Part shown: positions 1,138 through 25,700 of the stretch, one piece after another
Numbering within the stretch: position 1 is the first letter of the stretch
How the letters are laid out: each line of letters starts with the position of its first letter
NCBI GenBank assembly: GCA_051748045.1
Contig: JBNJGY010000024.1
Location: 1-27,443, forward strand
Source: Thermotogota bacterium
GTDB taxonomy: Bacteria; Thermotogota; Thermotogae; Petrotogales; Petrotogaceae
Direction of reading: 5' to 3'
Length of the DNA stretch: 27,443 bases
Program-made: the position numbers and the translations under genes
The notes under the pieces: generated by a model
What the model was told of the DNA's origin: nothing
Seen by the model: the letters and a program-made list of their open reading frames with translations, nothing else
Databases searched by the model: none

Positions 1138-1173
1138 TTTCATATAAAATCCCCATAGCTTTATTTAACTCTG

Positions 1174-1201
1174 GCAGATGCGATTATGCATCTGCTTTTT
1201 T
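1174..1201 (+). terminator. Rho-independent terminator after the hydrolase
   Basis: GCAGATGC-GATTAT-GCATCTGC followed by T6. Confidence 0.85.
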
Positions 1202-1291: not shown

Positions 1292-1984
1292 ATGAATGAA
1301 AATATTTTAATAATAGATGATGAAATAGAAATTAGAAATTTGATTGAAATCTATTTAAAAGGTGAAAACTATAATATTTTCCAAGCAGAGAATGGAAAAC
1401 AAGGGTTGAATATTCTAAGAAACGAAGATATAGATTTAATAATTCTTGATTTAATGATGCCTGAAATGAATGGGAGAGATTTTTGTATTGAAACCAGAAA
1501 AAAATATGATACACCAATTATCATGTTGACTGCGAAAGATCAAGATGTTGATATTATTTTAGGTCTTAATCTTGGCGCTGATGATTACATTACAAAACCA
1601 TTTAATCCCCTAGAATTAATTGCTAGAATTAAATCTCAATTAAGAAGATCATATTTCAACAAAAGCAAAAATAATAATGATAAAAATGAATTTATTCATA
1701 AAGGAATTTATTTGAATACAAACACTAGAGAAATTAAGATAAACGATAAAGATATAAACCTTACTCCTACAGAATTTGAAATTTTAAAACTTTTGTTAGT
1801 TAACAAAGGAAACGTTATGAGCATGGATAAAATTTACGAAGAAGTTTGGGGCAATGATTTTATGGATTCCAAAAATACTGTCATGGTTCATATAAGAAAA
1901 TTGAGAGAAAAAATCGAATTAGATTCTAAAACCCCTTATTATATTAAGACAATATGGGGGGTTGGTTATAAAATTGAAAAATAA
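1292..1984 (+). CDS. OmpR/PhoB-family response regulator
   Basis: Receiver motifs IIDDE, LDLMMP, MLTAK, GADDYITKPF; winged-helix LTPTEF...VHIRKLREK...TIWGVGYK; SD GAGGTG. Confidence 0.95.
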   Translation: MNENILIIDDEIEIRNLIEIYLKGENYNIFQAENGKQGLNILRNEDIDLIILDLMMPEMNGRDFCIETRKKYDTPIIMLTAKDQDVDIILGLNLGADDYITKPFNPLELIARIKSQLRRSYFNKSKNNNDKNEFIHKGIYLNTNTREIKINDKDINLTPTEFEILKLLLVNKGNVMSMDKIYEEVWGNDFMDSKNTVMVHIRKLREKIELDSKTPYYIKTIWGVGYKIEK

Positions 1985-3416
1985 AACAATCAGAGGTTAT
2001 TTTTTAATGGCTTTTATTATAAGCTTCTTTTCTGCAATTATCATAAACTTTGTTTTATTAAATATCTATTCAAAACTTGTCTTTGAATATAGGAAAAACA
2101 GCATAAACGAAGTTTTAGACAATCTTAAAAATCATACTGAAGAAGATCATGATCTTAAAAAAGCATTTAATAATTTTGTAAATAGTTTTGATTTAGGCAA
2201 CAGCACTGTTGGAATTATTAACGAAGACAAAAAATTAATAGCTTCAAATAAACCTATTAATAATATATCTTTTGACAAGTTTAATTTTGATAAGTTCAAC
2301 TTTGAAAACAACAATTTTCTGGAGTTTACTTCTTATGATTTTAAGCCAGATCCACCATTTAAACCAGCCATTAAAAAAGAGCAGTATATATACATTCCTT
2401 TCAAAAATAACAATAATCAGTTTTATTTAATTATTGATTTTGAACCTGGTAAAACAATCGGAATGCTTTTAAATAGAGATACAATGTTTTTTATATCTAT
2501 GATTTCTTCAATTATTATTTTTCTTATTATTTTTTATTTGATTACTAATAAAAAGATAAAATATATTAATAAAATTTCTAAAGAAATATCAAAAAAGTCT
2601 TTTGGAAAATTAGATCATAAATTAGAAGTAAAAGGAAACGATGAAATAGCTGAAATAATAAAAAATATAAACTATATGTCTGAAGAAATAAGCAATCAAA
2701 TAGAGAACGAGAGAGAAGCAGAAAAAGAAAAATACGAATTGATTTCTAATATATCTCATGATCTTAGAACACCTTTAACTTCTGTAATTGGTTATTTAGA
2801 TTTGATAAAAAAAACAAATTATGATGATAAAAATCAACTAAAAGAATACTCAAATATAGCACACAGAAAATCTATTAAAATTAAAGAATTAGTTGATAAT
2901 CTTTTTGAATTCACAAAATATAACAACAAAGATATACAGATATCTAAAATGAGAGTTAACCTAAATGATTTTATTGAACAATTTATATACGAAATGTCTG
3001 ATTATGAAAAAAAATATAATAAAAAATTAAAAAAACATTTGTGTAACGAAGATGTTTATGCAGAACTTGATCCACAACTTTACTTTAGAGTTTTTCAAAA
3101 CCTCTGTATAAATGCTTTTAAATACTCAAAAAATAATTCTGATATCGATATTATCGTCAGTGATAATATAAAAGAAGTGACTATAACAATTTCTAATTAT
3201 ACAAACGACAGAGAAAATATAGATATTGACAAAATATTCAATAGATTTTATAAAGAGGATAAATCAAGAAGTACAATTAAAGGTGGTTCTGGATTGGGAC
3301 TATCAATAGTAAAAAGTATTTTAGATACCCATCAACACGATATTATAGCTAAAAAAACAGAAGACATAATTTCATTTAAAATTATTATTAAAAAAAATAA
3401 AAGGGAGGAATTTTAA
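1974..3416 (+). CDS. HAMP-domain sensor histidine kinase
   Basis: Two TM segments, HAMP (GNDEI), H-box SHDLRTPL, N-box NLCINAFKY, G2 GSGLGLSIV. Start placed at TTG 1974, which has a GGGGGTTGG SD-like sequence upstream; TTG 1962 is the alternative. Confidence 0.92.
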   Translation: MKNKTIRGYFLMAFIISFFSAIIINFVLLNIYSKLVFEYRKNSINEVLDNLKNHTEEDHDLKKAFNNFVNSFDLGNSTVGIINEDKKLIASNKPINNISFDKFNFDKFNFENNNFLEFTSYDFKPDPPFKPAIKKEQYIYIPFKNNNNQFYLIIDFEPGKTIGMLLNRDTMFFISMISSIIIFLIIFYLITNKKIKYINKISKEISKKSFGKLDHKLEVKGNDEIAEIIKNINYMSEEISNQIENEREAEKEKYELISNISHDLRTPLTSVIGYLDLIKKTNYDDKNQLKEYSNIAHRKSIKIKELVDNLFEFTKYNNKDIQISKMRVNLNDFIEQFIYEMSDYEKKYNKKLKKHLCNEDVYAELDPQLYFRVFQNLCINAFKYSKNNSDIDIIVSDNIKEVTITISNYTNDRENIDIDKIFNRFYKEDKSRSTIKGGSGLGLSIVKSILDTHQHDIIAKKTEDIISFKIIIKKNKREEF

Positions 3417-4414
3417 TGAAAAAAAGTTTAGTTACATCTATTATTTTGATAGTATTTATTTTTGCTTTTACCACTAGTATTACCGATTTATACGAACAAG
3501 CGAAAGAGGTTTCTAACGATTATAAACTTTTAGAAATAGACAAGGAAATTGCTTTAATGGATTATGAAAAATCGAAAATTGAATCAATAAACAAAAGAAC
3601 AGATTTATCAGCAGAACTAAGCTATGTTCAAAATATGAATAATTATTACTCTTCATTGAAAAACTATTATAATTCTATAAATTCTATTGTTTATGATTAT
3701 AAAATATCAGAAATAGATATCCAGGTGCTAAATTTACAAATCGAAAATGCTGAAATTAATTATAACAACAATAAAAACCTATATGAAAAAGAATTAATTT
3801 CAGAAAATGCATTGAAAAATAGTAGGATTTCTTTAGATGATTTAAAAAATTCTCTTTTAAATGTCGAAAATAATTATGACCAAAAAAAAGATGAATATGA
3901 AAAATATTTTGACTCTGAAATTAATTCAATAGAATTTGATATAAACTTAGAAAACATTAAATATACCGATGAAACTTATGTAGCAAGTTCACTTTTGGTT
4001 GAACAGAGTGAATTAAACTTAGAGCTAACAAAGTATAACTTTGATACTTTATCTCAAAATAGTTCTCAATACGATAAAAGAAGTGCAGAGTTGAACGTAA
4101 AAAAATCTGAAATAAATTTAGAAAAAACCTTAGAAAATGTCGAAGAGCAGAACAATAATTCTTACATAAATTTAGAAGCACAGAGAAACACAGTGAATAA
4201 TTTATCTGAAATGGTTTCTATAAAACTAAATAATTTAGAAAATGATCAGAACAGTTTTAAAAATAGTTTAATTTCTAAAACTGAACTCAATCAAACAAAA
4301 ATAGACTATTACAACACCCTAAAAAATCTGTACTCAAACGAAAAAAATCTTTTGAATAGTTTAATCAACTATATTTTAAACGTTCAGGTATCTCCGGAGG
4401 AGGTAATGAATTGA
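3416..4414 (+). CDS. TolC/OEP-like protein, apparently all alpha-helical (no beta-hairpins)
   Basis: Signal peptide; two internal helical repeats ending in tip motifs LYEKELIS and FKNSLIS; located in an exporter operon; TAATG coupling to the kinase. Confidence 0.65.
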   Translation: MKKSLVTSIILIVFIFAFTTSITDLYEQAKEVSNDYKLLEIDKEIALMDYEKSKIESINKRTDLSAELSYVQNMNNYYSSLKNYYNSINSIVYDYKISEIDIQVLNLQIENAEINYNNNKNLYEKELISENALKNSRISLDDLKNSLLNVENNYDQKKDEYEKYFDSEINSIEFDINLENIKYTDETYVASSLLVEQSELNLELTKYNFDTLSQNSSQYDKRSAELNVKKSEINLEKTLENVEEQNNNSYINLEAQRNTVNNLSEMVSIKLNNLENDQNSFKNSLISKTELNQTKIDYYNTLKNLYSNEKNLLNSLINYILNVQVSPEEVMN

Positions 4415-5685
4415 AATTAAAATATATCACTTTATCAGTATTTTTGATAATTTCTATATTTTCTTTTTCAAGTGTGAATTCAATAATAGAAGAAAAATTA
4501 AATGAAAACAGTAATTATCAAAAATCTTTGGAAAATTATATTTCAACAAAATACAGTAATTCAATCTACAACAATTGGTTTCAGCCTTATTTGAGTTTAT
4601 CTACAAACCAATTAACAGGTATCACAATAACAGAGGACGGCCTTAGCGATATTGGATTAAATGCAGAGGTTAACATTGCAAATTTTTATGGAGTTAATTT
4701 TGGAGTTCAAATACCTTTTGATATAAAAACAGAAGACAGCTTTGATTTTGATGTGCAAAAAGAGAATATAAGTTTATCAATAACTTATGGGTTAAAAACC
4801 GAGTACTTTTCTAATAGGTTATCTAGAGAATCTAACCTTTTATCCTCTCAGCACAATCTTGAAGAAATAGAAGACTCTATTATCATAAATACATTTAAAG
4901 AAGTGTTTAATTATTACTATTTGAAAAATAACATAGACCTACAATATCAAAAGTTAGAACTATTGGAAGATAAGCACGAAAATTCCGAGTTAGAAGACGA
5001 AAGAGATAATCTAAAAAAACAAATGTTAAATCAAGAATCTCTAATTTTGTCTTTGGAAAATTCATTAGCAAATATTAATATAGATTTTTCAGAAGAATTA
5101 TACATTGATTCAAAATCAAAGATTAAAAACATAGTTAATAATAGTTTTGATTTATCTATTGATAATAGAAAAGATATTGAAGCCTTAGAATTAGCAAAAG
5201 AAGTAGATAAAAGAAATACTAACTTATGGTTTTTGCCTTTTTTGCCCGATCTAAACTTCACTTTTGGAGTAAGAGATTATGAAAATTGGAACTGGGAGTT
5301 TGGTATTAATTTCCAGTATGATATTTTAGATAGAGGAGAAAGGCTTGGAGAGGCTTTAACTAGAAAAAACAACATAACTACTTTAGAATATAATGAAAAA
5401 ATAGAAACTATAAATAGAAATATAAAAAATCACGAAAACAGCTTAGATACCATGAACCTTGAATTACAGATTTTGGAGTTAGATTATGAAAATTTGATAG
5501 ACGATTTAGAAAAATCAGATAACTTAAACAAACTTGGTTATATTAGTAATATAGATCATAATTTAAACTTAATCAATCTTGAAGTAAAAAAATTGGAAAT
5601 TGAAAAACAAAAAAATGAAATAATAATAAAGGAACTAGAACTATTAAATGAAAAAGGTTTATACATTAGAGGTGAGCTAAATTGA
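4411..5685 (+). CDS. TolC/OEP-family outer-envelope protein with beta-strand segments
   Basis: Signal peptide; QPYLSLS...ISLSITYGL and LPDLNFTFG...WEFGINFQYDILDRG amphipathic strands; RKDI and KLGYIS motifs; TTG start with SD GGAGGAGG. Confidence 0.75.
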   Translation: MKLKYITLSVFLIISIFSFSSVNSIIEEKLNENSNYQKSLENYISTKYSNSIYNNWFQPYLSLSTNQLTGITITEDGLSDIGLNAEVNIANFYGVNFGVQIPFDIKTEDSFDFDVQKENISLSITYGLKTEYFSNRLSRESNLLSSQHNLEEIEDSIIINTFKEVFNYYYLKNNIDLQYQKLELLEDKHENSELEDERDNLKKQMLNQESLILSLENSLANINIDFSEELYIDSKSKIKNIVNNSFDLSIDNRKDIEALELAKEVDKRNTNLWFLPFLPDLNFTFGVRDYENWNWEFGINFQYDILDRGERLGEALTRKNNITTLEYNEKIETINRNIKNHENSLDTMNLELQILELDYENLIDDLEKSDNLNKLGYISNIDHNLNLINLEVKKLEIEKQKNEIIIKELELLNEKGLYIRGELN

Positions 5686-6728
5686 AGAAAGCTTTTATAT
5701 TTATAATCATAATAATAATAGCTGTTATATCTGTTTTTTTCATAATAAACAACAATAAAGATACTGATAAAAATACAGATCAGAAAAATGTAGAGAATAT
5801 ATTTACAACTTACACAATAGAAAACACTCGAATTGGAGATTATATTGAAATAACAGGTACTGTAGAAGCTGATGAAAGAAATGTTGTCTCAGAAGTTTCA
5901 GGTAAAGTTACAGAATTATATATTGAAAAAGGCCAAAAAGTAAGTGAAGGAGATCTTTTGGCTAAATTTGAGGATTTGGAGTATAGAATCGCCTATTTAA
6001 ATGACCTTAGAAATTTTGAATTGGCTGTTAATGATAGCCCTAAAATAAAAGAAATCAAGGAATTACAACTAGAATTATCAAAAAGAAATTTGGAAAATAC
6101 CGAATTGAAATCTCCAGTCGAAGGAACTATAAGTGATGTATATATTGGAGAAGATGATTTTGTTCCTACTAATCAAAATATCATCAGTATAGTTGATACA
6201 AACTCTTTGAGAATTGAGAGCGTAGTGGATGAAATAGATTTATCTAAAATTCATGTTGGTATGCAAGCCCTTGTAGAATTCGATCAATTAAACGCATCTA
6301 TTCCTGCAGAAATAAATCTTATAAACCCAGTGGCAGTAAACTCTGGTGGTCTAACTACTATCCCAATAGAGTTAAACTTCACAGAAGATGCCAATAAATT
6401 TGGTGTTATTCCAGGCATTACCGGAAATGTAAAATTGATTATTTTAGAAGCAGAAAATGAAATTGTAATCCCAACAAATGCTTTGAATCAAGATGGTAAA
6501 GGAAATTTTTTTGTTTTTTTAAAAACAGAAAACGAACCTGAAAAAATTAATATTGAGATAGGCGAGAAAACTGATGATAGAGTAATAGTGAAATCAGGGT
6601 TGGAATTTGGTCAAACCTTAGTAATTTACCCTGATCAAGAAGAATTGGAAAGATTAAAAGATAAATATGAAGAAAAGAATCCTTTTGGTCCAGCAGGTCA
6701 AAAAAAAGCACCCGGTGGTGGAAAATAA
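5682..6728 (+). CDS. Periplasmic adaptor / membrane fusion protein (MacA/YknX-like)
   Basis: N-terminal TM; lipoyl-like halves VSGKVTELYIEKGQKVSEGDLL and LKSPVEGTI; VDEIDLSKIHVGM; IVIPTNAL; VKSGLEFG. Confidence 0.9.
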   Translation: MKKAFIFIIIIIIAVISVFFIINNNKDTDKNTDQKNVENIFTTYTIENTRIGDYIEITGTVEADERNVVSEVSGKVTELYIEKGQKVSEGDLLAKFEDLEYRIAYLNDLRNFELAVNDSPKIKEIKELQLELSKRNLENTELKSPVEGTISDVYIGEDDFVPTNQNIISIVDTNSLRIESVVDEIDLSKIHVGMQALVEFDQLNASIPAEINLINPVAVNSGGLTTIPIELNFTEDANKFGVIPGITGNVKLIILEAENEIVIPTNALNQDGKGNFFVFLKTENEPEKINIEIGEKTDDRVIVKSGLEFGQTLVIYPDQEELERLKDKYEEKNPFGPAGQKKAPGGGK

Positions 6729-7402
6729 TGAATGTTATGACACTAAAAAATATTAGAAAAACTTATCAAATGGGTAAAATAGATGTTCATGCTTTAAAAG
6801 ATATTAGTTTTGAAGTAGAAAAAGGAGATTTTACCATAATAGTAGGACCTTCTGGATCTGGAAAATCTACCCTTTTGCAAATATTAGGCGGTTTAGATAG
6901 GCCAACTGCTGGAGATGTAATTATAGAAAAAGACAATATATCTCATATGAAAGATAAAGAATTAGCAATTGTAAGGAATAAAAAAATTGGGTTTGTTTTT
7001 CAGAAGTTCAATTTATTAAGTAATTTGTCTGCTCTAGAAAATGTTGCATTGCCAATGGTTTATGCAGGGGTTAGTTTATCTGAAAGAAAAGCAAAAGCAA
7101 AAGAATTATTAGAACTTGTTGGTCTTGGGAATAGGATAACACACAAACCAAATGAGTTATCTGGAGGACAACAACAAAGAGTAGCTATAGCAAGAGCACT
7201 TGCAAACGATCCAACTTTTTTACTAGCTGATGAACCAACAGGTAATCTAGATACACAAAGTGGAACTGATCTCTTGAATGTTTTTCATAAACTACATTCT
7301 ATGGGTAAAACTTTAGTTATAGTTACTCATGACCAAGAAATGGTTAATGAAGGAAATAAAGTCGTTAAAATAAGAGACGGCCTCATTGAAGAGGTGAATT
7401 AA
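6728..7402 (+). CDS. ABC transporter ATP-binding protein (MacB/LolD family)
   Basis: Walker A GPSGSGKST, signature LSGGQQQRVAIARAL, Walker B LADEPTGNLD, VTHD. Confidence 0.96.
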   Translation: MNVMTLKNIRKTYQMGKIDVHALKDISFEVEKGDFTIIVGPSGSGKSTLLQILGGLDRPTAGDVIIEKDNISHMKDKELAIVRNKKIGFVFQKFNLLSNLSALENVALPMVYAGVSLSERKAKAKELLELVGLGNRITHKPNELSGGQQQRVAIARALANDPTFLLADEPTGNLDTQSGTDLLNVFHKLHSMGKTLVIVTHDQEMVNEGNKVVKIRDGLIEEVN

Positions 7403-8626
7403 ATGGAAATATTAAGAGAAACTATTAGATCACTGATATCTAACAAATTGAGAACTTTTTTATCCATGTTGGGAATAATCATAGGAATTACATCTGTTAT
7501 AGCTGTTATTTCTTTAGGAGAGGGAACTACTCAAAATTTAACTGAAAGTGTTTCTTCATTGGGGTCAAATGTTCTCATAATAACTCCTGGAAAAACAACT
7601 ATAAGAGCAGGGTCTAGTTCTTCAAACAATTCATTAACCGTTGATGACGCCAATAATATAAAATATTCTGCCCCTAGTGTTAGATCTACATCACCAGTTT
7701 TACAAGGATCATTTTTACTTAAGAAAGATGATTTGAATATAAATTCAACCCTTTTATCTTCTAATAATGATATAGTTTCAATATTGAATTTGGAATTGTC
7801 TGATGGAAAGTTTTATGACTCAACAGATATGGAAGAAAAAAGAAATGTTATGGTTATAGGATACGAAATTGCAAATGAATTATATCCAAATGAAAATCCC
7901 ATAGGAAAAAATATTTCTGTAATGCAAAACATATCTAATTCTTTAACAAGAAAAGTTAACTTCGAAATAATAGGGGTTATGAAGGAAACAGGCAGTAAGT
8001 TATTATACAACATAGATACAACTGTGTTAATACCATTTTCAACTGGAGATGCCAGATTATTTCAATCAAATGGTAATGTTCAACAAATTTTAGCTTCAGC
8101 TCAATCCCAAGAAATGTCTAAAACTGCTCAAATTGAAATTGATACAATATTATACAACAAATTTGGATCTGAATCTTTTAACATAATGAGTCAAGATGCA
8201 ATTTTAGAAGTTATAGGAAATGTGACTGGTATCATGAGCTTTATTTTAGTTGCCATAGCAGCAATATCTCTTGTTGTCGGAGGAATTGGAATAATGAATA
8301 TTATGCTTGTATCAGTTTCAGAAAGAACAAAAGAAATAGGAATTAAAATGGCAATAGGCGCAAGTAGGAAAAGAATTCTTTTCGAATTTATTTTCGAAAG
8401 TATTGCCATTACCTTTATCGCTGGTATTATCGGAATAATTTTTGGTATTTTATTGTCTAACGGTATAGCATCTTTAGCAAAAGAATTTAATTTAAGTGCT
8501 TTAATTAGCTGGCAAGCTATTTTTGGTTCTTTTGGTATTTCTGTCGCTGTAGGGTTATTTTTTGGTATTTATCCAGCTAACAAAGCTTCAAAATTAAGTC
8601 CTATTGAAGCTCTAAGATACGAATAA
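7403..8626 (+). CDS. MacB/FtsX-family ABC permease (YknZ-like)
   Basis: RTFLSMLGIIIG; large extracytoplasmic domain; VGGIGIMNIMLVSVSERTKEIGIKMAIGA; C-terminal PIEALRYE. Confidence 0.95.
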   Translation: MEILRETIRSLISNKLRTFLSMLGIIIGITSVIAVISLGEGTTQNLTESVSSLGSNVLIITPGKTTIRAGSSSSNNSLTVDDANNIKYSAPSVRSTSPVLQGSFLLKKDDLNINSTLLSSNNDIVSILNLELSDGKFYDSTDMEEKRNVMVIGYEIANELYPNENPIGKNISVMQNISNSLTRKVNFEIIGVMKETGSKLLYNIDTTVLIPFSTGDARLFQSNGNVQQILASAQSQEMSKTAQIEIDTILYNKFGSESFNIMSQDAILEVIGNVTGIMSFILVAIAAISLVVGGIGIMNIMLVSVSERTKEIGIKMAIGASRKRILFEFIFESIAITFIAGIIGIIFGILLSNGIASLAKEFNLSALISWQAIFGSFGISVAVGLFFGIYPANKASKLSPIEALRYE

Positions 8627-8633
8627 TTTTTAT

Positions 8634-8660
8634 GTGCTGTCTTTTATGACGGCACTTTTT
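8634..8660 (+). terminator. Rho-independent terminator closing the exporter operon
   Basis: GTGCTGTC-TTTTAT-GACGGCAC (one G-U pair) followed by T5. Confidence 0.8.
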
Positions 8661-9769: not shown

Positions 9770-11809
9770 ATGAAAAAATATCTAATAGTAACTTTTTATA
9801 TTTTACTTATAATACTCACTTTAGGAATAAAAATTGGAGTGTATGAAAATCCTCCAATGGTAATAAATGAGAAAGAAGGATTTTTCCCTGAATATATTTT
9901 ACATATTTTATCTGATGATTTTGATGTTGAAATGATTATGAAACCTCAGTCTATGTTAATGGATGATTTAAATAATGGAGAAATTGATGCTATTGTACCC
10001 TTAGGATATTCTGAAGAAAGAGACTCACTACACGATTTTAATAATGAAGCCTTTACATCAAATTGGGGAATAATTTATAAAAGAAGAGAATCTTTAGCAA
10101 ATACAATTTTTGATTTAGAAGATAAAAAAATTGGAGTTATGAAAACTGATATATTTTATGAAGGCCCACAAGGTTTGAAATTTTTACTGAATTCTTTTGA
10201 CTTAGATGCTACTTTTGTAGAGTTTGAAAGCTATACAGATATTTTCAAAGCTGCTCAAAAAGGTCATATCGACCTAGCTGCTGTAAATAAAATATTTGGC
10301 ATGAAGAATTATAATGAATTTTCTCTTTTACCAACAGATATTGTATTTTCTCCAATCAACGTATTAATGATGATTAGGGAGAATTATGAAAGAAAATCCG
10401 AACTAATAAATCTTCTAGACAATAGTTTAAAAGAAGATAAAAATAATAGGGGGAGTTATTACCATACTTTATTATCAAAATATATTAATTCTTCTATTGA
10501 AGTTATACCTAATTGGGTAAAGACAATATCATTATGGAGCATATTATTATTTTTTATAATTATTGTCGGAATATCTATAAATAGAAATATTCTTTCAAAA
10601 TTAGTAAAGAAAAGAACTGAAGAATTAGAAGAAGCAAAAAATGAACTTATACAAAAAAACAAATCTTTAGCTGAAATGAACAATGAAATAAATAACCAAA
10701 ACAAAGAATTGGAATCTATTTATAATGAAAATTCTCATTTATCTGAATCATTAAAAAGCATGATATTTGTTTTGTCTAACATAGGAAAACAAACGTACGA
10801 AACAGAAGACTACTTTTTAAATGAACTATTAGAAACAATATTAAAATTAATACCACATGCCGATTATGGGACTTCTTTCAAATTTATTAACCATAAGGTT
10901 CATTTTGTATCAAGTTATGGTCATGATCTAGATATGTTAAAAAATATTGATATTGATGAAGATTATTATTTTGAATCTATTGATCGTCCAATTATATTTG
11001 ATAAAACAATTAATTATGATAATTATAATTTGTCAAAAGAAGCAATTGATAAAATTAAAAAAGCGAATAAACCAATAAAACAATCTATAACAATGGGGTT
11101 AAATATTGAAGATAAAAAAATTGCTGGAATTTCTATTGATATAGCAGAAAATTCAAATGATTTTTTTTCAAAAAAAGATTTGGAGTTAATAGAAGCTTTT
11201 AGAACTCTTGCATCTACTTTTTATACAGTAAAATTAGATAACGAAAGAATATTTAATTTCCAAAAAAACCTAATAATAAGCTTTTTACAATTATTAGAAA
11301 TACACGATGAATACACAAAAGAACACTCTGAAAATGTAGCAGAATTAACAGAAAATCTAATGAAAATATTAGGTTATAATGATGATGAAATAAGAAATGG
11401 TTATTGGGCTGCATTAGTTCACGATGTAGGTAAAGCTTTGATTTCTGAAGAGGTACTAAATAAAAAAGAAAAACTAACTGATGAAGAATTTAAAATTATA
11501 AAGATGCACCCAGTATGGGCGTTTATGTCTCTTTCGAAAAATGAAAATTTAAAAAGTATTGCAAACATTGTGCTACATCATCATGAAAGATGGGATGGGA
11601 ATGGTTATCCTGATAGATTATCCAGAAATCAAATTCCAGAAATATCTCAAATTATTTGTGTTGTAGATGCATGGGATGCTATGACATCAGACCGTTCTTA
11701 TAGGAAAGCTTTGTCTAAGACAGAAGCTATTGATGAACTGATTAAAAATAAAGGTACCCAATTTTCGCCAAAAATAGTGGACACCTTTTTAGATATTTTG
11801 AATAATTAA
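9770..11809 (+). CDS. Membrane sensor HD-GYP phosphohydrolase (solute-binding domain, TM, coiled coil, GAF-like, HD-GYP)
   Basis: N-terminal family-3 SBP-like domain (IGVYENPP, GEIDAI, KKIGVMK); TM; coiled coil; HDEYTKEHS, HDVGK, HHERWDGNGYP, DAWDAMTSDRSYR. Confidence 0.9.
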   Translation: MKKYLIVTFYILLIILTLGIKIGVYENPPMVINEKEGFFPEYILHILSDDFDVEMIMKPQSMLMDDLNNGEIDAIVPLGYSEERDSLHDFNNEAFTSNWGIIYKRRESLANTIFDLEDKKIGVMKTDIFYEGPQGLKFLLNSFDLDATFVEFESYTDIFKAAQKGHIDLAAVNKIFGMKNYNEFSLLPTDIVFSPINVLMMIRENYERKSELINLLDNSLKEDKNNRGSYYHTLLSKYINSSIEVIPNWVKTISLWSILLFFIIIVGISINRNILSKLVKKRTEELEEAKNELIQKNKSLAEMNNEINNQNKELESIYNENSHLSESLKSMIFVLSNIGKQTYETEDYFLNELLETILKLIPHADYGTSFKFINHKVHFVSSYGHDLDMLKNIDIDEDYYFESIDRPIIFDKTINYDNYNLSKEAIDKIKKANKPIKQSITMGLNIEDKKIAGISIDIAENSNDFFSKKDLELIEAFRTLASTFYTVKLDNERIFNFQKNLIISFLQLLEIHDEYTKEHSENVAELTENLMKILGYNDDEIRNGYWAALVHDVGKALISEEVLNKKEKLTDEEFKIIKMHPVWAFMSLSKNENLKSIANIVLHHHERWDGNGYPDRLSRNQIPEISQIICVVDAWDAMTSDRSYRKALSKTEAIDELIKNKGTQFSPKIVDTFLDILNN

Positions 11810-12515: not shown

Positions 12516-12546
12516 AACGCACATATTACTAAATATGTGCGTTTTT
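12516..12546 (+). terminator. Terminator hairpin between convergent genes
   Basis: AACGCACATATT-ACTA-AATATGTGCGTT followed by T; overlaps the stop codon of the minus-strand gene. Confidence 0.85.
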
Positions 12547-13461
12547 AATTTTTTTATATATACTTTTTAATCCATATGAGGAAAGAACAGCACCAAAGGC
12601 TATGGTTCCTAATTTTCCACCTCCACCACCAAAGTGACTATAACTGTAAATAAAAATTATTGCTACAAATAAACTAATAATGAGCATTTCTAATATACTT
12701 TTGACTCTATCTTTTGAAGACATTCCAGCAAAAGTTGCTGTCATTAAAACAAGTGAATAATCCACATCATAATTACTCATTATTTCAGGCAATATTAATG
12801 CACCTATTAAACTAATAATAGCTGAAACTGCTACGACATTTTTATTATAATAATGGCTGAATAAAAATGTTAGTAATGTACCTAAAAAAGTAATTATCAA
12901 AAGATAGTAATTATTTTCCAAGGTAAAATCTAAAGATAACAAATCTATATTACACATATAGTATATTATAATCCATGAGGAAAATGCTGTTGCTCCCAAT
13001 TTACCCCCGAAACCATCAAAAATATTTTTACCTAGAGCAAAAATTATTCCAGCTATTATAGAAGCTAATATAATATGATAAAAATCATGATAAACTTCCG
13101 GAGAAACCATTCCAACAAATGCTCCTGTATATAGTTGAATAGAATATTTTGGTTTAAACCCAAAACCTAATATTCCAACTAAACTAGCTGCGATAATTGC
13201 ACCTTGACCTAAATAAATATTAAAAATATACGCTAATAAACCTCCCAAGAAAACATAAAAAATATCTCTATAATCAATTTTTTCTTTCACCTTTTTATCT
13301 TTTATGCTCAAATATTCCTTAAACATGGCTGATAAAATTCCGATAACAATTAAAAATGAAAATATAAACATAGAAATATTATCTCTAAAGGATGAAACAA
13401 GAGTAAGGATATATAAAAAACTTGTAGATATGCTAATAATAAAAAAAGAAATATACTTAAT
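12529..13461 (-). CDS. Polytopic membrane protein of unknown function with a duplicated F-x-GM-x-S...GGKLG motif
   Basis: Multiple hydrophobic segments; two copies of the motif set. Start inferred at ATT 13461, 8 nt after the GGGGG SD; the ORF-track TTG at 13521 has no SD. Confidence 0.75.
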   Translation of the reverse strand: MKYISFFIISISTSFLYILTLVSSFRDNISMFIFSFLIVIGILSAMFKEYLSIKDKKVKEKIDYRDIFYVFLGGLLAYIFNIYLGQGAIIAASLVGILGFGFKPKYSIQLYTGAFVGMVSPEVYHDFYHIILASIIAGIIFALGKNIFDGFGGKLGATAFSSWIIIYYMCNIDLLSLDFTLENNYYLLIITFLGTLLTFLFSHYYNKNVVAVSAIISLIGALILPEIMSNYDVDYSLVLMTATFAGMSSKDRVKSILEMLIISLFVAIIFIYSYSHFGGGGGKLGTIAFGAVLSSYGLKSIYKKIKNAHI

Positions 13462-13527
13462 AATTAATTCCCCCTTTAACTCTTTTACAAATATTATTAC
13501 AAAATTTTCTTGAAAAATCAAATTTAT

Positions 13528-20595: not shown

Positions 20596-20635
20596 AAATA
20601 AAAAGCTGGTTTCATTAGAAACCAGCTTTTTATTT
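20596..20635. terminator. Bidirectional terminator
   Basis: AAATAAAAAGCTGGTTTC-ATTA-GAAACCAGCTTTTTATTT between convergent genes. Confidence 0.9.
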
Positions 20636-21068
20636 ATGGCATTATAATATTTCCAGAACCATTTCCTTTATTATTTTTATTTTTATTTAGTTGATCAACA
20701 AAGTTTGAAGGAGCCACTGAAATATCTGCTTTTGAATTTTCTTTTTCCATCATTTCTTTCATTTCATTTTGATAATTTTTGATCCTATCTTTCATTTCTT
20801 TTAGATCGTTATCTGCCCATTGAATTATTCCTTTACTTACTTGTTTAATCTGTTCTTCTGAAACTTCCTCTCTTTCTTCATCTAATTCTTTTAAAGCTTT
20901 AAACTCTTGTTCAACAGCTTTTTCAACATCTTCTTCTTTGAGCATATCATTATCTCTCAAAATTCTTACTGCAACATTTGATCTGAATTTTATATCCTCT
21001 AATGATAATTCAATGTTTTCTAATTTTGCCATTATAACTTGAATAATTTGTTCAATACTTATTTGCAT
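20634..21068 (-). CDS. Hypothetical acidic coiled-coil protein
   Basis: 144-aa ORF with SD AGGAGG, its own promoter candidate (AAGACA-N17-TATAAT) and a downstream terminator. Confidence 0.8.
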   Translation of the reverse strand: MQISIEQIIQVIMAKLENIELSLEDIKFRSNVAVRILRDNDMLKEEDVEKAVEQEFKALKELDEEREEVSEEQIKQVSKGIIQWADNDLKEMKDRIKNYQNEMKEMMEKENSKADISVAPSNFVDQLNKNKNNKGNGSGNIIMP

Positions 21069-24710: not shown

Positions 24711-25700
24711 TTATCTTTTTATAAATTTAATTTTGTATGATGTTGAATTACCCCAAAAATCCTCTAATTTAATAGTTCCATTATATTCAGCGAAATTACT
24801 ATTTATATATCTAGATAGATTATTTTCTGAAATAATTAGATTATTATCGTTTGAATACATTTTTAACCAATATATAGTAGATGTAGAGCCATAACCATAT
24901 ATTGGAGCTGGGTTATAGGCATTTTCGTATTTAACTTTTGAAAAATCTAGTTTATATGCCAATTTACCGTCTATAAATAAAGTAATTTTTTTTGGCAAAA
25001 TAGTTGAATTTTGTCCTAGTTTTTCTCTTACTCTAACATCAATTTTTGGATAATCTCCTGTAATTTCAACAACCGTTTCACCATCTTGGTTTATAGAATA
25101 ATTATTATTTTCATTTCTTATTTCTAATAATTCTAATATTTTAATTCTTTCTTCACTATAGTCAATAAATTCTATAGCATCTAGGACAACTTCTCCTGCT
25201 GCAGTTTTTTCTCTAACTTCAAAATGAAGATGTGGAGCTAAAGCTTCACCTGTACTTCCAGAAAAAGCGATGACTTCTCCAGAACTTATAGAAAATTCAT
25301 TTTCAGGAAATATAATTTCTATTCTACCAGCAGAACCTCTAAAGTCTTCTTTTACTAAATCAACATAATCCATTATTTTTTCATTAAAATCATTCAAATG
25401 AGCATATACAGTAGATAAATTTGATTCTGGATGATGGACAAATAACGCATTTCCATATACAGGATCATTAACCCAAGCTTTTTCTAAATATCCTTTAGAA
25501 GCAGAAAATACATCTAAATTTTCTCGATATAATGTAGAAAAATCTATCCCTAAATGGAAATGTGGATCATTTCCAGTACCTCTATATTCACCAAAAGAAG
25601 AAGTTATATATGAATTTTTTATTGGTGGTTCAAATATAGCTGATAATAGTGTAGTAAAAATTAAAAATGTTAAAAGTAAAAACATTACTATTTTTTTCAT
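24711..25700 (-). CDS. Secreted M23-family metallopeptidase
   Basis: Signal peptide; ITSSFG, HLGID, YAHL, SGSTG, PHLHFE. Confidence 0.9.
   Translation of the reverse strand: MKKIVMFLLLTFLIFTTLLSAIFEPPIKNSYITSSFGEYRGTGNDPHFHLGIDFSTLYRENLDVFSASKGYLEKAWVNDPVYGNALFVHHPESNLSTVYAHLNDFNEKIMDYVDLVKEDFRGSAGRIEIIFPENEFSISSGEVIAFSGSTGEALAPHLHFEVREKTAAGEVVLDAIEFIDYSEERIKILELLEIRNENNNYSINQDGETVVEITGDYPKIDVRVREKLGQNSTILPKKITLFIDGKLAYKLDFSKVKYENAYNPAPIYGYGSTSTIYWLKMYSNDNNLIISENNLSRYINSNFAEYNGTIKLEDFWGNSTSYKIKFIKR

Follow-up and report, generated by a model that had tools for sequence, protein, structure and literature searches.

A 27,443-nucleotide stretch of DNA from a Thermotogota bacterium (contig JBNJGY010000024.1 of assembly GCA_051748045.1, hereafter the window) carries an operon in which two adjacent genes, called A and B here, encode proteins related to the outer membrane factor (OMF) TolC. 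This stretch makes up contig 24 of a genome with a completeness of 99.65%. A and B are the only matches to the Pfam family OEP (PF02321) in this genome, and the closest named relative of A belongs to Geotoga petraea (83% identity).

Seven genes of the forward strand, from position 1292 to 8626, have overlapping or nearly abutting ends and constitute one operon, in the order response regulator, histidine kinase, A, B, adaptor, ATP-binding cassette (ABC) ATPase and MacB-type permease. The first gene (1292..1984) encodes an OmpR-type response regulator (Pfam Response_reg, E 2.7e-30; Trans_reg_C, E 4.8e-27) and the second (1962..3416) a sensor histidine kinase with the Pfam domains HAMP, HisKA and HATPase_c. 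They are followed by A (3416..4414, 332 amino acids), which encodes a protein of the TolC/OEP fold without beta strands according to Pfam, AlphaFold2, Foldseek and hhalign, and by B (4411..5685, 424 amino acids), a barrel-bearing OMF according to Pfam, AlphaFold2 and Foldseek. Directly 3' of the pair lie the genes of a membrane fusion (adaptor) protein (5682..6728, 348 amino acids), a MacB-type ABC ATPase (6728..7402; Pfam ABC_tran, E 2.6e-36) and a MacB-type permease (7403..8626; Pfam MacB_PCD, E 3.1e-38, and FtsX, E 7.6e-22). The adaptor is of the HlyD type (Pfam E 2e-15), with matches to HlyD_3, HlyD_D23 and Biotin_lipoyl_2 and to RND_mfp in NCBIfam (129.4 bits; cut-off 94.9). These three genes correspond to a MacB-type ABC tripartite exporter, and they give A and B the linkage to an adaptor and an inner-membrane transporter that is characteristic of OMF genes. 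It should be noted that the helical hairpin of the adaptor is short, with at most about 32 residues between the end of the lipoyl match (96) and the start of the HlyD_D23 match (129). Terminator-like hairpins on the same strand are present 5' of the operon (1173..1196, a 10-pair stem followed by a T run) and at its 3' end (8634..8655, an 8-pair stem followed by a T run).

Regarding the gene junctions, the ATG of A at 3416 shares bases with the stop codon of the kinase (TAATG), and the TTG start of B at 4411 overlaps the TGA stop of A (TTGA). The TTG start of the adaptor at 5682 overlaps the TGA stop of B in the same way (TTGA), so that this kind of start and stop overlap occurs twice in succession. 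A GGAGG-like site is found 6-8 nucleotides 5' of the starts of A, B and the adaptor. A preliminary description of the window had reported two adjacent, overlapping open reading frames (ORFs) of the OEP type, and both exist: they overlap at the TTGA and both pass the Pfam cut-off.

Folds of the A and B proteins

Both proteins match PF02321 (cut-off 22 bits) over two stretches each, A with 37.5 bits (E 2.7e-9) and B with 45.3 bits (E 1.1e-11). In A the match covers only the helical part of the family, from position 65 to 182 of 187 in the best stretch. The N-termini of A and of B are lysine-rich and then hydrophobic, without cysteine, which by eye fits the putative Sec signal peptides that had been proposed for both.

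The AlphaFold2 model of A, obtained from an alignment of 6 rows, has a predicted local distance difference test (pLDDT) value of 90.4 and a predicted template modelling score of 0.83. It is all-helical, with no strand of three or more residues, and its helices span residues 34-56, 60-124, 130-164, 193-210, 218-282 and 288-321. Hence the layout is that of a short upper helix, a 3-residue linker, a 65-residue helix, a tip, a 35-residue helix and an equatorial stretch, which is then repeated with a 7-residue linker. The polar linkers (57-59 and 211-217) occupy the positions of the hairpins of TolC, and the normal beta-hairpins, which the preliminary description had noted as lacking in A, are also missing from the model. 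Four transmembrane strands per protomer, two in each repeat, characterise an OMF, and the model of A contains none.

The two linker motifs and the two tip motifs pointed out earlier lie where they had been placed, and the model shows them as linkers without hairpins and as helix-turn-helix tips. Linker 1 (IESINKRT, residues 55-62, 3578..3601, forward strand as for all the following segments) replaces the hairpin of repeat 1, and among 21 aligned sequences its N59 is nearly invariant. Linker 2 (SQNSSQYD, residues 213-220, 4052..4075) replaces that of repeat 2, with S217 and Y219 invariant in the same alignment. The tip of repeat 1 (LYEKELIS, residues 122-129, 3779..3802) has an invariant L122 and a nearly invariant S129, and that of repeat 2 (FKNSLIS, residues 281-287, 4256..4276) has invariant L285 and S287. 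Thus the top linkers are among the few places in A where positions are invariant (S217, Y219) or nearly so (N59, together with Y50 and N201). Moreover, the long helix spans are fixed in length, with 71 residues in 71 of 72 family members for one and 69 residues in all 72 for the other.

Comparison of the model of A with the PDB by Foldseek returned OMFs for all of the best 40 matches (E <= 3e-4; best E 1.2e-7), with template modelling scores of up to 0.66 when normalised by the query. The A and B families (21 sequences each) were aligned by hhalign from end to end with a probability of 97%, E 9e-11 and 17% identity, and the two long gaps of A coincide exactly with the beta segments of B. A sequence profile search of the PDB was uninformative, since A reached TolC at E 0.02-0.7 only and B matched nothing relevant. 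The possibility that A is itself a membrane fusion (adaptor) protein was considered and rejected, given that it has no HlyD or lipoyl match in Pfam and that its model is all-helical; the matches to adaptor hairpin parts in NCBIfam are weak, concern coiled stretches and lie far under the cut-offs (E 0.002 to 0.7). A is related to the OMF family by descent and by fold, but it does not qualify as a channel subunit of the outer membrane as usually understood.

The AlphaFold2 model of B has a mean pLDDT of 74.4, which falls to 35-55 over residues 53-130 and to 47-54 over 271-310. The first of these regions includes the strand-rich segment of repeat 1 (residues 59-128, 4585..4794), 70 residues long when measured from a conserved proline to the start of the long helix, in which strands are modelled at 61-62, 71-74, 77-92, 95-106, 112-115 and 121-126. 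The second includes the hairpin of repeat 2 (residues 276-309, 34 residues, 5236..5337), with strands at 282-289 and 294-300. All of these strands are modelled at low pLDDT, and together with the alternating pattern seen by eye they may be counted as four for repeat 1 and two for repeat 2. The helices of B have 63 and 26 residues in repeat 1, compared with 68 and 35 in the other repeat, and the tip of repeat 1 is accordingly shortened. An enlarged strand-rich segment, an ordinary second hairpin and a shortened first tip were the three features that had been attributed to B, and all of them are recovered in the model.

These features extend to the family. The repeat-1 segment measures 58-94 residues in 72 of 72 members and is never shorter than 58, and the repeat-2 segment ranges from 33 to 69 residues across the same members. 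The usual tip motif is lost from repeat 1 in 21 of 21 aligned Thermotogota members, and the tip of repeat 2 retains L372 and G376. The best 41 Foldseek matches of B are all OMFs, with CmeC, CusC, SilC and OprM at the top (best E 5.2e-11). B is an OMF with an unusual barrel segment. As a separate observation, the repeat-2 segment reaches 69 residues, compared with about 34, in the B-type ORFs of three loci (L066, L088 and L096, from genomes G016, G019 and G015, respectively), where the additional part is acidic and aspartate-rich and looks like an external loop, not like strands.

Conservation and recurrence of the pair

The co-occurrence check suggested in the preliminary description was made by profile searches of 151 Thermotogota genomes. 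The A profile has a match in 87 of them, belonging to 35 of 48 genera, and the B profile in 84; both match in 83 genomes, A alone in 4 and B alone in 1. PF02321 itself has a match in 89 genomes and none in the other 62. Three of the four genomes counted with A alone do have a B-like ORF adjoining A that the B profile missed, and the gene counted as B alone sits at a contig end. In the fourth genome, G026, a transposase-like ORF is present where B would be expected, and this is the only such case of A and the pump without B. That ORF (L024, 2667-3893, 408 amino acids) lies on the reverse strand, opposite to its neighbours, and the genome has an unrelated outer factor beside an RND pump on another contig.

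The two genes are also kept together. Of the 30 best loci, 29 have B immediately after A, the exception being that of G026, and both complete ORFs lie side by side in 72 of 74 fetched loci, where the two exceptions are G026 and a locus in which B runs off the fetched stretch. The module of A, B, adaptor, ATPase and permease is retained in Mesoaciditoga, in Athalassotoga and in three further families represented by genomes G106, G076 and G124. A 783-residue open frame across A and B in G106 was examined as a candidate fusion and discarded, as it consists of ORFs of 340 and 433 residues with an in-frame stop between them. Furthermore, a scan of a genome collection with the first alignment of A gave three loci, all from Thermotogota.

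Lone ORFs of the OEP family with both repeats were observed in two of the genomes, G046 (L037, 2205-3428, forward strand) and G026 (L040, 2306-3496, reverse strand). The gene beside the latter is RND transporter-like by eye, and a large gene also adjoins the former; these lone outer factors may stem from transfer. A further lone OEP-like ORF is present in G074.

Relatives of A without a barrel are not restricted to these genomes. A search of 1.84 billion cluster representatives (50% identity) with the A profile gave 624 matches at E <= 0.001, 84 of them at E <= 1e-10. About 95 of the best 150 are full-length proteins of 320-390 residues without an insertion at either linker, and the rest are fragments or proteins of ordinary TolC size. 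The named members of the barrel-less clusters are TolC family proteins from metagenome-assembled Spirochaetaceae, Spirochaetales, Limnochordia, Halanaerobiales and unclassified Bacillota, whereas Deinococcota is a lead only, from a language-model look-up. No fused forms of A of 645-2000 residues were found in a search that is weak evidence on this point; one candidate, P0136 (642 amino acids), turned out to be an adaptor with a long hairpin. The locus scan with the Spirochaetales-type barrel-less alignment gave no metagenome locus.

Starting from one barrel-less representative, 14 loci were reached, and 13 of them hold a near-identical copy (82-99%). Three of these loci were inspected (L041, L043 and L045), and all of them present the order adaptor, ATPase, permease, barrel-bearing OEP protein (468-478 amino acids) and barrel-less protein (371-375 amino acids). 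Among the 151 Thermotogota genomes, no match to the barrel-less protein of this lineage exceeds 29% identity. Judged from gene content and order, the same pairing thus recurs outside these genomes, with B before A and both after the pump genes. By eye, the barrel-bearing partner in this lineage has an ordinary repeat 1 (about 36 residues) and an enlarged repeat 2 (about 62 residues with an alternating pattern).

A phylogenetic tree was built from 73 chosen rows, which comprise 10 of the 21 pairs, 24 other barrel-less proteins, 28 ordinary outer factors and 1 further partner; the rows were drawn from A-profile matches and are heterogeneous in composition, so the tree is indicative only. All 34 barrel-less rows fall on one side of a weak fork (Shimodaira-Hasegawa-like approximate likelihood ratio test, SH-aLRT, 81), accompanied by one long-branched ordinary row. 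The A proteins of Thermotogota are sister to the Spirochaetales-type group (SH-aLRT 99), and the B proteins of Thermotogota form their own clade (SH-aLRT 100). With the reserve that such a tree demands, A and B appear to be old, separate families and not recent copies or the product of a local loss.

Taken together, a functional partnership of A and B is strongly supported at the level of genomes, because Thermotogota genomes with one of the two genes nearly always have the other beside it, the two being inherited together, and because the pairing recurs elsewhere. The preliminary description had proposed that the two proteins work together, either in one mixed channel or with A as an extension of the tunnel, and the partnership itself has held up.

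Possible arrangements of A and B in the exporter

The arrangement that we favour, giving it somewhat less than an even chance, is a stack in which a barrel-less trimer of A forms a segment of the tunnel, with the adaptor on one side and a trimer of B on the other, which would lengthen the exit duct. A and B would then be two obligatory outer parts of a single MacAB-type tripartite exporter, and the two-component system encoded by the preceding genes would switch this exporter. B would be the membrane-embedded trimer, with a barrel of six strands per protomer instead of four, and A, a paralogue of TolC in which both hairpins have been lost, would be exported and soluble. We infer that three copies of A would form a twelve-helix tube, about as long as the TolC tunnel and with helix-turn-helix ends at top and bottom, inserted on a common axis between the hexameric adaptor and B. 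Each protomer would dock with its two canonical tips on the short hairpins of the adaptor and with its conserved top linkers on the tips of B. The duct would thereby become longer, which could suit an envelope with a very wide periplasm.

The evidence leans mildly towards such a tunnel extension over a ring in which A and B are mixed, because A keeps two canonical tips, strictly fixed helix lengths and invariant top linkers; because the repeat-1 tip of B is degenerate across the phylum, which would fit a B protein that is no longer in direct contact with the adaptor; and because the adaptor hairpin is short and the envelopes concerned are wide. Named barrel-less relatives come from Spirochaetales, Limnochordia and Halanaerobiales, whose envelopes have long outer-membrane tethers or periplasmic flagella. 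In cryo-tomograms of Thermotoga maritima, the lateral periplasm is about 70 +/- 10 nm wide (PMC10160955).

Several points weigh against the stacked A trimer. One extra tube of 10 nm would fall short of bridging 70 nm, and the family of T. maritima would be mostly without the pair if, as we guess, it is the family f9, where A is found in 2 of 24 genomes. The stack also gives no reason for the extra strands of B, and the beta content of B is enlarged both in Thermotogota (in repeat 1) and, by eye, in the lineage of L041 (in repeat 2). A complex prediction with one copy each of B (21-424) and A (20-332), run with 21-row alignments and without controls, scored 0.00 in both runs, which speaks neither for nor against binding. 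The taxa of the barrel-less relatives, in turn, rest on a few named metagenome-assembled genomes. As for the docking of A on B, changes in the length of the A top linkers and of the B tips coincide in two clades (12 of 12 rows in f7, and 12 rows taken as f8) and are one-sided in other rows. In one clade (12 loci, including Mesoaciditoga and Athalassotoga) linker 1 of A has 4 additional residues and the repeat-1 tip of B has 2; in another 12 loci, linker 2 of A is 1 residue shorter, tip 1 of B is 1 residue longer and tip 2 of B is 2 residues shorter. This coupling is only a hint, because these are single events in related genomes and too few of them are independent.

A more elaborate form of the stack seems quite improbable to us. 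The barrel-less trimers would be stackable segments, one or several of which would be lined up, head to tail, from the adaptor ring to the trimer that bears the barrel, and the cogwheel-like hairpin ends at the top and bottom of each twelve-helix tube would permit the joining. If true, this would provide Thermotogota, diderm Bacillota and spirochaetes with a duct of adjustable length, able to cross periplasms 30-70 nm wide.

Canonical TolC has twelve strands and twelve staves, and the same arithmetic would be satisfied by a single mixed ring of one A and two B, in which all three subunits supply helical staves and the two B chains alone supply the twelve strands (6 + 6 + 0). We regard this as possible, although rather unlikely. 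The strands absent from the model of A and the four and two modelled in B agree with it, as does the fact that no B among the 72 members has a repeat-1 segment under 58 residues, and A and B align helix for helix. With a shared barrel, a loss in one partner would be expected to go together with a gain in the other, and the partner in the lineage of L041 seems by eye to combine one ordinary and one doubled segment, with the doubling in the opposite repeat. There is also a precedent for a 2:1 heterotrimer among pump components, the RND transporter MdtBC, whose two paralogues occur in this ratio. MdtBC is named as a heterotrimer in PMC8277102. However, two identical B chains would have to adopt different conformations for a barrel of two-fold symmetry to sit on a helical tube of three-fold symmetry, and the degenerate repeat-1 tips of B (21 of 21 aligned members) would present the hexameric adaptor with two poor docking sites. 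Moreover, an 18-strand barrel of three B chains would also fit a twelve-helix tube, with estimated radii of about 16.5 Å for 18 strands at the usual shear and about 13.5 Å for twelve strands at an assumed shear, so the extra strands need no strand-less partner. The strand count itself is uncertain (pLDDT 35-55), part of the length variation of B corresponds to the acidic loop, and A and B are just 17% identical and belong to long-separated clades.

It is also conceivable, with a lower probability than the mixed ring, that A serves the pump outside the duct to B, either as an alternative barrel-less exit tube that discharges into the periplasm or as a plug or an assembly factor, sitting on the tips of the adaptor or of B until the pump is engaged. 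The absence of a membrane part in the model of A, its canonical tips, which could bind the adaptor alone, and the sensor control of the operon speak for such a role; the near-complete co-occurrence and adjacency with B, as well as the fact that the pair recurs, speak for a dependence of A on B, and among the 151 genomes none has A and the pump clearly without B, G026 excepted. The idea that A is a functionless, decaying remnant of a duplicated TolC gene starts from the loss of the very part that defines an outer membrane channel, and it is so improbable that we reject it. It is contradicted by the intact frame of constant architecture (87 of 151 genomes, 35 of 48 genera), by the helix spans fixed in length in 71-72 of 72 members and by the invariant residues at linkers and tips, and about 95 cluster representatives among the best 150 matches share the strand-less layout.

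Other genes of the window and comparison with known systems

Outside the operon, the window contains a few genes worth mentioning. The forward-strand gene at 9770-11809 encodes a 679-amino-acid protein that carries an HD_5/HD domain at its C-terminus (E 1.6e-35) and has no Pfam match over its long N-terminal region; it is hydrophobic near residues 1-20 and 255-275 and is possibly a membrane-bound sensor phosphohydrolase. On the reverse strand, the ORFs at 12529-13521 (330 amino acids) and 20634-21068 (144 amino acids) have no Pfam match at E 1e-5, and that at 24711-25700 (329 amino acids) matches Peptidase_M23 over about 30 residues only (137-166), possibly a degenerate LytM-type domain.

Turning to the exporter, to our knowledge all solved tripartite pumps use one homotrimeric OMF with four strands per chain. 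What is kept across this phylum instead is a fixed pair, with one chain lacking the barrel part and the other having extra barrel. Either geometry, stacked or mixed, would if true be a new way of building an exit duct, and it bears on how export machines cross periplasms whose width is several times that found in E. coli. In the full-text literature outside subscription journals, no description of a barrel-less TolC relative or of a two-gene or heteromeric outer factor was found, and database entries for these proteins carry just the name 'TolC family protein'. Probably hundreds of entries under this name, with 320-390 residues, are not outer membrane channels, which corrects their annotation. 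Being small, partly soluble and derived from thermophiles, the pair should suit structural work.

The nearest relatives of A and B are the members of the TolC/OMF family (PF02321; E. coli TolC, OprM, CusC, CmeC). Like A and B, they are built of two tandem OEP repeats, each with a long and a split helix and a helix-turn-helix tip with the usual motif, they begin with an N-terminal export signal, putative in the case of A and B, and their genes lie beside those of an adaptor and an inner-membrane transporter. Unlike them, A lacks the hairpin in both repeats and can therefore supply no part of a barrel. In B, about 70 residues take the place of one usual hairpin and the repeat-1 tip is degenerate, and the two proteins come as a fixed pair. 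At the level of the whole machine, the closest system is MacAB-TolC of E. coli, which also combines a MacB permease (MacB_PCD, FtsX), a separate or fused ATPase, an HlyD-type adaptor and an OMF exit. It has one outer-factor gene, whereas two are present here, and the exporter of the window further differs in the short hairpin of its adaptor, in the two-component system within its operon and in having a toga instead of an outer membrane with lipopolysaccharide.

In function, the tube proposed for A comes closest to the one that helical hairpins form in adaptor hexamers such as MacA and AcrA, in which soluble periplasmic helices extend the TolC tunnel by tip-to-tip docking. A differs from these adaptors in its TolC repeat topology and in having no lipoyl, beta-barrel or membrane-proximal domains. 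Lastly, MdtBC resembles the A-B pair in that one pump component is made from two paralogues, but it is an inner-membrane transporter and not an exit duct, and neither of its subunits is without a whole structural layer as A is.

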